DNA of 64,000 nt from a virus (lineage: Duplodnaviria; Caudoviricetes): positions 1 through 64,000 of IMG/VR virus record IMGVR_UViG_3300021255_004321, one strand, 5' to 3'. Positions 3,727-53,283 of the stretch are shown here, piece by piece. Position numbers and translations under genes: made by a program. Numbering within the stretch: position 1 is the stretch's first letter; each line of letters starts with the position of its first letter. The notes beneath the pieces are model-generated. The model was not told where the DNA came from, ran no database searches, and was given only the letters and a program-made list of their open reading frames with translations.

Positions 3727-3752
3727 CAACTATTATATATTAACAGTCGACT

Positions 3753-12989: not shown

Positions 12990-13013
12990 AAAAAAGGCAG
13001 GCCGAAGCCTGCC
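12990..13013 (-). terminator. Intrinsic terminator closing flaB-flaA unit
   Basis: GGCAGGC-TTCG-GCCTGCC plus U6. Confidence 0.85.
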
Positions 13014-13036: not shown

Positions 13037-13849
13037 TTATTTTGCATCTCCTGAAGAATCCATTTTTTCTTTTTCTCTTTCAATCAGCGCAGCCTTAAGT
13101 TTGATTGCCTCTTTTTCTCTTTCTTCAACCTTTGTCTTATCGCCTGACTTCAAATTGAAAGTTTCATCTGTTGACTTAATAATCTCAAGTTCCTGTTCAG
13201 TGTATGCAAGGTCATAAATAACCTTTACATTGCTTATGTAAACAACTGAAACATCATAGCCTGTAATAGGAATTGTTCTTATGCGAATTGCTCTAATATA
13301 AAGTTCATTTGTTGCCTTTCCGCCATAAGCTGGGTAATTCAAAACGTCTCTTTTATTAGGGTCATCAACATATTCAAGATTATCCCATTCAAGAACAACT
13401 TCTCCTATAGTCTGCAAATCACCTTTGAATTTATATTCTTTGCCTACTGGGTCATTTGGGTCAGTTGCTAAAAATATTGATACTTCATCGTTTCTGTTTA
13501 TACCATTAACTGTAATACCAAGTTTCTTTAATGTGCCAACATTTGTCAAGTAGCCAAACTCTTTATCAGCTTCAGTTATAATAGGATTGTATGGCGGCAC
13601 AATGTCATAATACACATAACGATTTTCAGGAATGTTCTGAACACAAACAGCAAGTTTGCCATCAACAATCTTAATCTGATAAGGAACTCCCTTAAGAGAT
13701 GACATTGGGCGAACTTCCCAATTTTCGTAGGAATAACCATCAACTGCGTTTTCGATAAAAGTACTTGCATTAAGGAAAGTCTTTTCCTCAGCAAATGTTG
13801 TAAAACAAATTGCGAATAGCATTGCAAATATCGCAAACAACTTCTTCAT
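13037..13849 (-). CDS. flaA: Spirochete-type flagellar filament sheath protein FlaA
   Basis: Sec signal peptide; GYLTNVGTLKKLGITVNG, LEWDNLEYVDDPNKRD...YPAY, YISNVKVIYDLA match the Treponema FlaA pattern; adjacent to flaB. Confidence 0.8.
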   Translation of the reverse strand: MKKLFAIFAMLFAICFTTFAEEKTFLNASTFIENAVDGYSYENWEVRPMSSLKGVPYQIKIVDGKLAVCVQNIPENRYVYYDIVPPYNPIITEADKEFGYLTNVGTLKKLGITVNGINRNDEVSIFLATDPNDPVGKEYKFKGDLQTIGEVVLEWDNLEYVDDPNKRDVLNYPAYGGKATNELYIRAIRIRTIPITGYDVSVVYISNVKVIYDLAYTEQELEIIKSTDETFNLKSGDKTKVEEREKEAIKLKAALIEREKEKMDSSGDAK

Positions 13850-13951
13850 TTATAATCTCCTCAAATTAAAGTATGGGGAACCGAAGTTCCCCTAGTTAAG
13901 CTCTTTTTTAAATACTAGGCAACTACCCACCCAATTGAGCCTCAGTTGCCT

Positions 13952-14809
13952 CTACTGTAAAAGCTGCAATACATTTTGTGACTGACTGTTTGCCTGTGCA
14001 AGCATTGCAGTTGAAGCCTGCTGAAGGATTGAGTTCTTTGTGAAGTCAACCATTTCTTTTGCCATATCAGCATCGCGAATAATGCTTTCTGATGAAGTCA
14101 TATTCTCTGCTGCAACATTGATACCTTTTGACGCCATCTCCATTCTGTTCTGAACAGCACCAAGGTCAGCTCTCTGTCTGTTTACATTCTTCAATGCTTC
14201 ATCGATTGTTGCAAGTGTACGGTTTGCTTCTTCAGTATCAGAAACTGATACGAGAGCGCCGTCTTCACCATCCTGTCCCTTTCCACGAAGTCCCAAAGAT
14301 TCAGCAGTTGCAGATGCAATGTTAATCTTGATGTTCTGGTCAACATTTGCGCCAACTTGGAAAGTAATTGTATTGTCGGCTTCTTTTGCGAAACGACCTG
14401 TCAACATATTGTAGCCATTGAATTGAGCAGTAGATGCGATACGGTCAACTTCAGCAACGAGCTGTGAAACTTCTACCTGAATCTGCATTCTGTCCTCATC
14501 GCTGTAAACACCGTTTGAAGCCTGAACAGCAAGTTCACGGATACGCTGCAAGATGTCAGTTGTTTCCTGCAAATAACCTTCAGTTGTCTGAATGAATGAT
14601 ATGCCGTTCTGAACATTTTTTGAAGCCTGATTGAGACCACGAATCTGACTTCTCATTTTTTCACTTACGGCAAGATTTGCGGCGTCGTCTCCGGCGCGGT
14701 TGATTTTCTGACCACTTGAAAGTTTTTCCATTGACTTCTGCAAGTCAATTGAATTCAAGTTTTCCTGACGAGCTGCAAAGATTGAGCTCATATTGTGATT
14801 TATAATCAT
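13952..14809 (-). CDS. flaB: Spirochete-type flagellin (filament core FlaB)
   Basis: [71 protein letters not shown]; 285 aa, lacks D2/D3 as in Treponema FlaB. Confidence 0.97.
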
Positions 14810-14833
14810 AGATGTTGCCCCTCCTAAGGCAAA

Positions 14834-14855
14834 AAGGTAGCATCCTTGCTACCTT
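14834..14855 (-). promoter_or_regulatory. CsrA-type binding hairpin in flaB 5' leader
   Basis: AAGGTAGCA-AGGA-TGCTACCTT, perfect 9-bp stem with AGGA loop; second AGGAG in the SD. Confidence 0.75.
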
Positions 14856-14859
14856 ATTA

Positions 14860-14888
14860 TTATCGACATTTTATATAAAAATATTAAC
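14860..14888 (-). promoter_or_regulatory. sigma28-like promoter (TTAA-N16-GTCGATAA) overlapping a class-2 TGTTAATAT motif
   Basis: 1 mismatch to GCCGATAA; positioned just 5' of the hairpin. Confidence 0.6.
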
Positions 14889-14889
14889 A

Positions 14890-15276
14890 CTAATCTGTTG
14901 GGAAGAGAGCAGAAGCGAAAGAATCATCGCCCGAACCATAATAAGGTTTCTTTTCGACTTTACTTTCAACATATTTGAAAATGTCGTAAGCATCTTGGTC
15001 AATTGCCCAAAGACTATCAAGAACTTCATCAGCGTATTTATCAAAGAACTCACAACAGCCGCTTGATGAAGGTTGTCCACCTATTCCACCGCAAGAATAA
15101 TCAAACCATTCCTGCTCAAGTTCATCTTCGTCTTTGTCGCAAACTTTTGTAAGAACCTGTATCATTGCATTTGCGAAGTCACATATTTCGCCTTCATCAT
15201 TTGTATCAAGTACAAGTCTGTTCATCATTCCTGTTTCGCCGACTGACTTCCATTCTGTTCTATAATCGACTGTCAT
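14890..15276 (-). CDS. Acidic hypothetical protein
   Basis: Abuts upstream gene; GAGG SD. Confidence 0.65.
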   Translation of the reverse strand: MTVDYRTEWKSVGETGMMNRLVLDTNDEGEICDFANAMIQVLTKVCDKDEDELEQEWFDYSCGGIGGQPSSSGCCEFFDKYADEVLDSLWAIDQDAYDIFKYVESKVEKKPYYGSGDDSFASALFPTD

Positions 15277-32558: not shown

Positions 32559-33118
32559 TACATCCCTCCAAAGATAAACGGGTAAACGTCTTGTTCCCAA
32601 ATCTCTTCAGGTGTTCTTCCGTTCAAATGAATAAGCTTCTTATCCAAAGAAGACATTTCATATGCTCTTTCGAAAGCAGCAAGTTCTTGCTTCTTCTTAT
32701 CAATGTCAAGTGAGAACGACAAACCATCGCCTCTTTTCTTGTCTCTTTCAATAACTGCTTCAGGAGTATCTGTAAACACAATCAACTTTGTTACTGGGTT
32801 ATTATGCTTTACATAATCTTTTTCATAATCGAAAACAAAGTCACCTGAATAATTACGATATATAGGTGAGTAAACTGTTTCACCAAGATGTGCACGGTCA
32901 AATATCAAAACATTTTGATTTGGAACAACTGACATCAAGCGGAACATTTCACGATAACGAATCTGTGAAGCAACTTTAATTGCATCATTTGTTTCAAGTT
33001 TAATGTTTGAATAATGAACAATGTGAACAGCTTTTGCAAGCTTCTCAAATTCTTTTTCAATAAGAGCTATCTGGGTGCCTTTACCCATAGCATCGCATCC
33101 CTCAATAATTACATTCAT
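32558..33118 (-). CDS. tmk: Thymidylate/dNMP kinase
   Basis: IIEGCDAMGKGT P-loop; IFDRAHLGETVY. Confidence 0.88.
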   Translation of the reverse strand: MNVIIEGCDAMGKGTQIALIEKEFEKLAKAVHIVHYSNIKLETNDAIKVASQIRYREMFRLMSVVPNQNVLIFDRAHLGETVYSPIYRNYSGDFVFDYEKDYVKHNNPVTKLIVFTDTPEAVIERDKKRGDGLSFSLDIDKKKQELAAFERAYEMSSLDKKLIHLNGRTPEEIWEQDVYPFIFGGM

Positions 33119-52546: not shown

Positions 52547-53283
52547 TGAAAGAAAGTGAAGTATTAGAAAAGTTTGAGCTCTTCAAGAATGGACTTATCA
52601 AAAAGAATACAAGAATTGGAGAACTTGAGCAAGAAGTAAGTAACTTAAAACAGGAATGCAGCGACAAGTCTTTATCAATCAATCAACTTGTTCTGCAAAA
52701 TGAAGAAAAGGCGAACGCAATTGAGCAGTTGCGTTCAGATTATAACAACCGCGCCACTGAGCTTGAAAATAAATATAACGACTTGAAAGAAAAGACTTAT
52801 AAAACAATCAAGCATTTGGTTGAGGATGTTATCGAAGCTCAAGAAAAGAAGATTGCAGACTTACAAAAAGAAATTATGCGGCTTGAAAACAGAAAAGAAA
52901 AACACGACACAACTGAAGATGTTGATGTTATGATGACAAAAATTCATACGACTGATGTTGATAAGTCAGCAGTTGATGAAACAATGGAGTCCATAAAAAG
53001 AGGTGAAAAACTTTTCAAGCAGTATTCGTTTGGTGTTGCAAACAAAGAAACTGTAAAAATGTTTGAAACATTTATTCATAATATATATGAACAAGCGCCT
53101 TTAATCGGTAGATTTTACATTCTTAATAACCCATTCAACTGTATGAATGGGCTTGATAAAGACGCTTGTGCCTCTTTACTTCAGCATTTAATTCAAGAAA
53201 GGATTGTTGAAACAAGAGGTGATGAATATATATCACAATACCTTGAAGAAGACGTTATCAAAGAAATCACAAAAGAGTGTTAA
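52546..53283 (+). CDS. Coiled-coil hypothetical protein
   Basis: TAATG coupling; heptad pattern. Confidence 0.75.
   Translation: MKESEVLEKFELFKNGLIKKNTRIGELEQEVSNLKQECSDKSLSINQLVLQNEEKANAIEQLRSDYNNRATELENKYNDLKEKTYKTIKHLVEDVIEAQEKKIADLQKEIMRLENRKEKHDTTEDVDVMMTKIHTTDVDKSAVDETMESIKRGEKLFKQYSFGVANKETVKMFETFIHNIYEQAPLIGRFYILNNPFNCMNGLDKDACASLLQHLIQERIVETRGDEYISQYLEEDVIKEITKEC

Follow-up and report, generated by a model that had tools for sequence, protein, structure and literature searches.

A giant phage of gut Treponema carries a flagellin gene whose leader appears to combine host-type CsrA sites with a phage promoter

The window, by which we mean the whole stretch of DNA analyzed here (64 kb), is the first part of a 91.8-kb viral record. 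CheckV puts the completeness of this record at 31%, from which we estimate a genome of roughly 300 kb. A complete relative, G001, measures 300,878 bp, has terminal repeats and contains one of the other phage flaB loci (L005), while the other relative records measure 219 kb and 189 kb. A further 306-kb contig (L009) is filed in a Bacillota MAG, and shares neighboring genes with the window at 81–94% protein identity; it appears to be a misplaced phage contig. Among the nearby open reading frames are matches to DNA helicase and polymerase families of phages. The window belongs to a giant phage (~300 kb) of gut Treponema, and on its minus strand it carries a flagellin gene, flaB, with a flaA-like gene directly behind it. 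The flaB leader, defined as positions 14810–14889 of the minus strand, is the 80-nt spacer ahead of flaB. The features of the locus, listed from 5' to 3' on the minus strand, are the following:

14890–15276, minus strand: upstream ORF of 128 aa with no known family; its stop codon TAG (14892–14890) abuts the promoter motif.
14881–14889, minus strand: phage promoter motif TGTTAATAT, of the extended -10 form TG-n-TAATAT (here TG-T-TAATAT); predicted transcription start near 14874.
14860–14887, minus strand: degenerate sigma28-like box, TTAA-N16-GTCGATAA; should it be used, the start is predicted near 14853.
14834–14855, minus strand: hairpin 1, a perfect AAGGTAGCA-AGGA-TGCTACCTT with a 9-bp stem and an AGGA tetraloop; proposed upstream CsrA site.
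14815–14832, minus strand: hairpin 2, TTGCCTT-AGGA-GGGGCAA, with the Shine-Dalgarno GGA in its loop; proposed ribosome-blocking CsrA site.
13952–14809, minus strand: flaB, encoding a 285-aa spirochaete core flagellin (Pfam Flagellin_N, 2.6e-42; Flagellin_C, 2.2e-26).
13037–13849, minus strand: flaA-like gene of the flagellar sheath protein family (Pfam FlaA PF04620, 3.4e-10), directly 3' of flaB.
12996–13013, minus strand: terminator-like hairpin plus T-run that closes the flaB-flaA unit; another copy of TGTTAATAT comes right after it.

Four of the leader elements, namely the sigma28-like box, the perfect hairpin, the Shine-Dalgarno GGA and the phage motif, had been pointed out in a sequence-only reading of this DNA; all of them lie where that reading had placed them, and all are non-random. 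A quick maximum-likelihood tree of 83 FlaBs groups those of the five phage loci as a single clade (SH-aLRT 100), nested within the Treponemataceae FlaBs. The FlaB of the window is 78% identical to those of L005 and L006, and 77% identical to that of L007. FlaA-like genes also occur in two of the relatives: in G001 (G001:C1:48313-48747) the gene lies ~50 kb from flaB instead of adjoining it, and another is present in G003, while none was found in G002. The spacer between flaB and flaA in the window (13850–13951, minus strand) holds two more hairpins, one of which reads GGGGAAC-TTCG-GTTCCCC, and both are without a T-run.

The two hairpins of the flaB leader are adjacent to one another, and both have AGGA loops. 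The GGA of hairpin 1 (14845–14843) lies at position -36 from the flaB ATG, which is at 14809, and the Shine-Dalgarno GGA (14824–14822, within AGGAGG) at position -15, giving a GGA-to-GGA spacing of 21 nt. The second, Shine-Dalgarno-containing hairpin was absent from the earlier description of the leader, and was found here on folding. A 101-nt region folds into both hairpins with a free energy of -24.7 kcal/mol (z = -3.2), and none of 200 shuffled sequences folded equally well; hairpin 1 by itself has a free energy of -11.6 kcal/mol. Across both strands of the 91.8-kb record, hairpin 1 is the sole hairpin with at least 8 Watson-Crick pairs and a GGA in a loop of 4–6 nt, and when at least 7 pairs are required, the record has 2 GGA-loop hairpins compared with a shuffled mean of 1.1. 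No Rfam family matches the leader: at E ≤1 across 15 loci, the search returned only TD-1, MicX and Termite-flg, all of them elsewhere and below threshold.

We then compared the leader with those of 78 spirochaete flaB loci. Two loci were set aside from this comparison: L009, the phage contig, and L058, where the match begins at residue 3 and upstream DNA is lacking. An upstream hairpin was counted when it had at least 5 bp, a GGA in a loop of at most 7 nt, and a position between -28 and -46, and 200 dinucleotide shuffles served as the background. By this definition, an upstream GGA-loop hairpin occurs in 51 of the 78 host leaders (shuffled mean 2.9). A Shine-Dalgarno hairpin with GGA in its loop occurs in 50 (shuffled mean 3.2), and both hairpins together occur in 42 (shuffled mean 0.11). 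The upstream hairpins of the hosts are built from 38 distinct stems around a constant GGA, with AGGA as the commonest loop (22/51). Their GGA-to-GGA spacing ranges from 21 to 30 nt, and the 21 nt of the phage falls within this range. At the level of predicted structure, this comparison finds the layout of two GGA hairpins to be widespread among the flaB leaders of spirochaetes.

For covariation analysis, an alignment was made of the 42 host leaders with both hairpins, which a script had picked for having them, and 3 phage leaders. Both sides of helix 1 change in 7 of its 8 pairs in this alignment. Its covariation score is 0.524, compared with 0.221 for shuffled alignments (0/500 reached 0.524) and 0.04–0.26 for slid controls; considering that the rows were preselected for hairpins, the frequency test on the 78 loci is the unbiased one. 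An alignment with Treponema flaB leaders had been suggested by the sequence-only reading as a check on a host-type leader, and the comparison made here favors one. In addition, a covariance model was built from the 42 host rows only and run without filters. Its best match in the window is the flaB leader (14807–14861, 22.3 bits), but since the runner-up (20.9 bits, 53185–53232, plus strand), a GGA-loop hairpin inside a coding region that we took as a chance match, is only 1.4 bits lower and the model is low in information, it is the position of the top match that counts here and not its score or E-value. The top matches of the same model in L005 and L007 are likewise their flaB leaders. The 17 host loci nearest to the phage FlaB clade have NGA, not GGA, in the corresponding loop, as well as a long structured leader, which indicates that the display of a GGA is not obligatory.

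Among the phages, the GGA pairs are located at -36/-15 from the ATG in the window, at -32/-11 in L005/L006, and at -30/-9 in L007, with a spacing of 21 nt in all three lineages. The leader sequences of L005/L006 and L007 are quite different from that of the window, yet both GGAs are kept. In L005 and L007, hairpin 1 is a weak one of 3–5 bp that is missing from the minimum-energy folds. In the closest relatives of the window, L002 and L009, an ORF resembling an HNH homing endonuclease lies between the conserved leader and flaB. The promoter motif and hairpin 1 are consequently found ~0.9–1.3 kb from flaB in these two loci; from the motif through hairpin 1 their sequence is nearly identical to that of the window, and their flaB has a new proximal Shine-Dalgarno sequence. 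The sequence-only reading had offered, as one possibility, that the phage gene stays wired into host flagellin homeostasis, and the endonuclease insertion in L002 and L009 speaks against a tight form of such wiring. The endonuclease-like ORF (L002:1800-3000 and L009:700-1500) has different junctions in the two loci, which lie behind hairpin 1 in L009 and behind the Shine-Dalgarno sequence in L002.

A terminator scan also flags hairpin 1, on account of its 9 pairs (4 of them G-C) followed by TTTTTG, at a position 3' of the promoter motif. Hairpin 1 could accordingly be read as a plain RNA structure, either a 5' stabilizer or a terminator or attenuator of readthrough from upstream, in which the GGA was inherited but is idle. 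Seven T residues follow hairpin 1 in L002, and hairpins also follow other TGTTAATAT promoters of this phage (for example at 3745 and 21698), both of which fit such a role. However, hairpin 1 comes after its own promoter, and a T-run is missing behind it in L009, as it is behind the equivalent host hairpins in the examples that we inspected by eye. Moreover, a plain structure leaves the constant GGA, the second GGA hairpin and the fixed 21-nt spacing unexplained, and we consider it an improbable account of the leader.

The account that we prefer, control of phage flaB by CsrA of the host, calls for the corresponding host genes. In all five Treponema-type genomes that were reached via the flaB loci, which are candidate hosts, csrA lies directly after fliW. 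In the four phage records, three of which are incomplete, searches with Pfam and NCBIfam profiles detected no CsrA, FliW, FliA-like sigma factor, Sigma70 region 2 or RNA polymerase beta domain. The sequence-only reading had proposed a two-site GGA leader of the CsrA type, and this proposal has gained in strength: the layout is that of spirochaete flaB leaders, the 21-nt spacing recurs in three phage lineages, and the putative regulators, fliW and csrA, are found in the candidate hosts and were not detected in the phage records. As an inference from sequence, CsrA control of phage flaB is well supported.

In Bacillus subtilis, the leader of the flagellin gene hag has two CsrA sites, BS1 and BS2, one with its GGA in a hairpin further upstream and the other with its GGA in the Shine-Dalgarno sequence, and FliW acts as the antagonist. 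The placement of the GGAs in the phage leader is the same, although B. subtilis belongs to a different phylum, and the likeness noted here is one of layout. The CsrA partner switch of this hag-type control is described in PMC12327847 and PMC6529632. Borrelia burgdorferi is similar to the phage in that its flagellin is a spirochaete FlaB; there, CsrA is reported to bind the flaB 5' UTR and to block translation through it, working together with FliW by FliW/FliS partner switching, and fliW adjoins csrA (PMC12327847). While binding of CsrA has been shown by experiment in Borrelia, it is predicted for the phage leader, and Borrelia is further described as having no sigma28 and using a sigma70 promoter instead (PMC11607428). 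In Treponema denticola, CsrA sites are reported near the Shine-Dalgarno sequences of flaB1 and flaB2, and flaB2 is reported to have a sigma28 promoter with TTAA as its -35 and CCGATAA as its -10 (PMC9481697). The -10 of the phage box reads GTCGATAA instead, and the phage leader is shorter (~45–65 nt) than those of T. denticola flaB2 (124 nt) and the gut Treponema loci (~150 nt or more).

A further parallel is the flaA mRNA of Campylobacter jejuni, which like the phage leader has two adjacent GGA stem-loops at a spacing of 21 nt, reported as CsrA-protected and as near the 18-nt optimum, and which is described as being targeted by CsrA and as titrating it (PMC4894983). The C. jejuni leader is chromosomal, has hexaloops and is transcribed from a sigma28 promoter, whereas the leader described here is phage-borne, has tetraloops, and has the Shine-Dalgarno sequence itself as its second loop. 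Given that the C. jejuni mRNA, with the same two-loop arrangement, titrates CsrA (PMC4894983), the phage leader might be mainly a decoy, in which case phage flaB mRNA, present in large amounts, would sequester the CsrA of the host and thereby derepress host flagellar genes and other CsrA targets. L002 and L009 keep the promoter and hairpin 1 unchanged though flaB no longer adjoins them, as a decoy would allow, but this conservation may merely reflect a recent insertion. Each transcript, moreover, offers only one site of the size of a CsrA dimer, and we give this reading a slim chance. A similarly slender prospect attaches to its extension, in which the decoy would keep infected Treponema motile while the same sites hold the synthesis of phage FlaB in step with export. 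If true, this would be the first case of a phage-borne RNA that antagonizes CsrA.

Phage-encoded flagellins have a precedent, as prophage flagellins were first reported in Enterobacter prophages (PMC13418256). In the FliC-P/TldR system of these prophages the phage brings a flagellin, as it does here, and the make-up of the host filament is altered (PMC13418256). There, the RNA-guided repressor TldR silences the host gene, whereas here the phage gene appears to carry the translational control sites of the host itself. Our literature search found nothing on a Treponema phage flagellin. CsrA-controlled flagellin leaders are already known in bacteria, and the one proposed here would be on a phage.

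As to the promoter, the sequence-only reading had noted that a phage motif is overlaid on the leader, and the distribution of this motif bears it out. The window contains 13 copies of TGTTAATAT, compared with 1.22 expected, and the highest count among 100 shuffles was 4. Across the full record, 12 of the 15 exact copies precede, by at most 100 nt, a crudely called gene start in the same orientation. The motif is also enriched over its reversed control in the related phages, with 56 versus 9 copies in G002, 26 versus 6 in G003 and, more weakly, 13 versus 7 in G001. At four gene starts (12975, 33118, 36643 and 53293) the ATG is found exactly 15 nt past the start of the motif and has no Shine-Dalgarno sequence; three of these genes follow an exact TGTTAATAT, and the one at 33118 follows the one-mismatch variant GGTTAATAT. 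Considering that +15 is also the expected transcription start, this arrangement suggests leaderless mRNAs. Judging from these counts, TGTTAATAT is a genuine promoter motif of the phage, of the extended -10 type, and it is probably the main driver of flaB. We also considered a generic sigma70 promoter at the leader, TTAATA-17-GATAAT, and rejected it, as such matches are no more frequent than chance would give (6 versus 7.1 expected). RNA contigs from four runs contain host Treponema flaB transcripts mixed with phage pieces. Exact phage RNA pieces occur at depth 2–3 in the run from the same sample, none of them spanning 14836–14868, and these are contigs from which transcription starts are not readable.

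The leader had also been said to contain a sigma28-like promoter, and this part of the sequence-only reading is only partly supported. The pattern TTAA-N16-GTCGATAA has its sole match in the window at this place (0.03 in shuffles). For comparison, we collected sigma28 sites from the hosts with the pattern TAAA-N17-CCGA[TA]A, which gave one site in each of 22 loci, 150–220 nt upstream of flaB, and built a matrix from the 21 unique sites; since the pattern fixed TAAA, CCGA and the spacing, this matrix is strict. With it, the window box scores 4.4 bits, compared with 19.3–30.3 bits for the host sites, and ranks 9th among the ~183,600 positions of the record. The box differs from the host consensus at two letters that are fixed in 22/22 host sites, both of them letters that the collecting pattern demanded. 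Its -10 reads GTCGATAA and not GCCGATAA, which is a C-to-T change at the second letter (C in 22/22 host sites, as the pattern required), and its -35 reads TTAA and not TAAA, at the host spacing that the pattern had likewise fixed. In L005/L006 the canonical TAAA-N16-GCCGATAA is present (20.1 bits), and TAAA-N17-CCGATA has a single match in the complete 300-kb genome of this lineage, at the flaB leader; the other three phage records have no match to it. The box starts at -58 from the ATG in the window, at -55 in L005, and at -57 in L007, where it is further decayed and reads TCCAATAA. L007 keeps GTTAATAT upstream of its decayed box, which suggests replacement of the sigma28 promoter rather than its use. 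Since its place is that of the canonical site in L005/L006, the window box is probably a relic in decay or else a promoter of low strength.

Alternatively, the box could be functional as a FliA promoter and account for most flaB transcription, which would make the phage gene a class III gene of the host cascade and leave TGTTAATAT a secondary role. The high rank of the box, its host-like spacing (given that the pattern set that spacing) and the lone canonical counterpart at the same place in the L005/L006 genome are all compatible with this. So is its -35, which equals the TTAA reported for T. denticola flaB2 (PMC9481697). On the host side, T. bryantii has a FliA (294 bits), and locus L076 carries GTCGAAA where the box would be expected. 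What weighs on the other side is the distance between its score and the at least 19.3 bits of the host sites, the change of a letter common to all 22 of them (and required by the pattern), and the further decay in L007, where GTTAATAT is retained. On balance, we regard a FliA-driven phage flaB as rather unlikely.

In the reading that we favor, in which flaB is driven from the phage motif, the three related lineages appear to be stages of a promoter swap: L005/L006 has the canonical sigma28 promoter alone, the window has a degenerate one together with the phage promoter, and L007 has a decayed one together with the phage promoter. An ancestral phage flaB would have had a FliA promoter ~55 nt upstream, which was kept in L005/L006, weakened in the group of the window and lost in L007. 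The window group and L007 would have gained the phage motif in exchange. Taken at the level of sequence, this is a Treponema phage with flaB and flaA that keeps the translational control sites of its host and swaps the promoter.

We therefore propose, with moderate confidence, that the phage flaB leader is a compact spirochaete flagellin leader that combines a phage promoter with translational control by CsrA and FliW of the host. Transcription would most likely start near 14874, at the phage-wide extended -10 promoter TGTTAATAT, which is probably read by the RNA polymerase of the host. The degenerate sigma28 box, 21 nt further on, would be what remains of the ancestral FliA promoter, from which FliA may still drive weak initiation near 14853. 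With either start, both hairpins would stay in the mRNA. Because these two GGA hairpins are arranged as on the flagellin mRNAs of the spirochaetes themselves, the CsrA flagellin brake of the host probably acts on phage flaB as well. One host CsrA dimer would bridge both GGAs and block the ribosome, and host FliW would relieve this block during flagellin export. Synthesis of phage FlaB would in this way proceed only in step with the export apparatus of the host. In this scheme, CsrA binding, repression, the choice of promoter and the benefit to the phage are what we infer from the comparisons above. The locus lends itself to testing how the control of a captured host gene is refitted to a phage programme, and whether the CsrA-FliW flagellin checkpoint is open to use or disturbance by a phage.

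Two observations on the host loci stand apart from the phage leader. Downstream of a host flaB, at L028:2566-2665, there is a weak Rfam match to Termite-flg (28.2 bits, compared with a threshold of 40). Upstream of one flaB paralogue of gut and rumen Treponema (loci L010-L021, L023, L027, L032, L035, L040, L048 and L063), a long conserved multi-helix leader extends from about -240 to -1. This leader has no Rfam match at E ≤1 in the three loci L010, L013 and L018. RNAalifold predicts 38 pairs in it, 25 of which show compensatory changes, and one of the helices closes on the Shine-Dalgarno region; we consider it a candidate for an undescribed cis-regulatory RNA.
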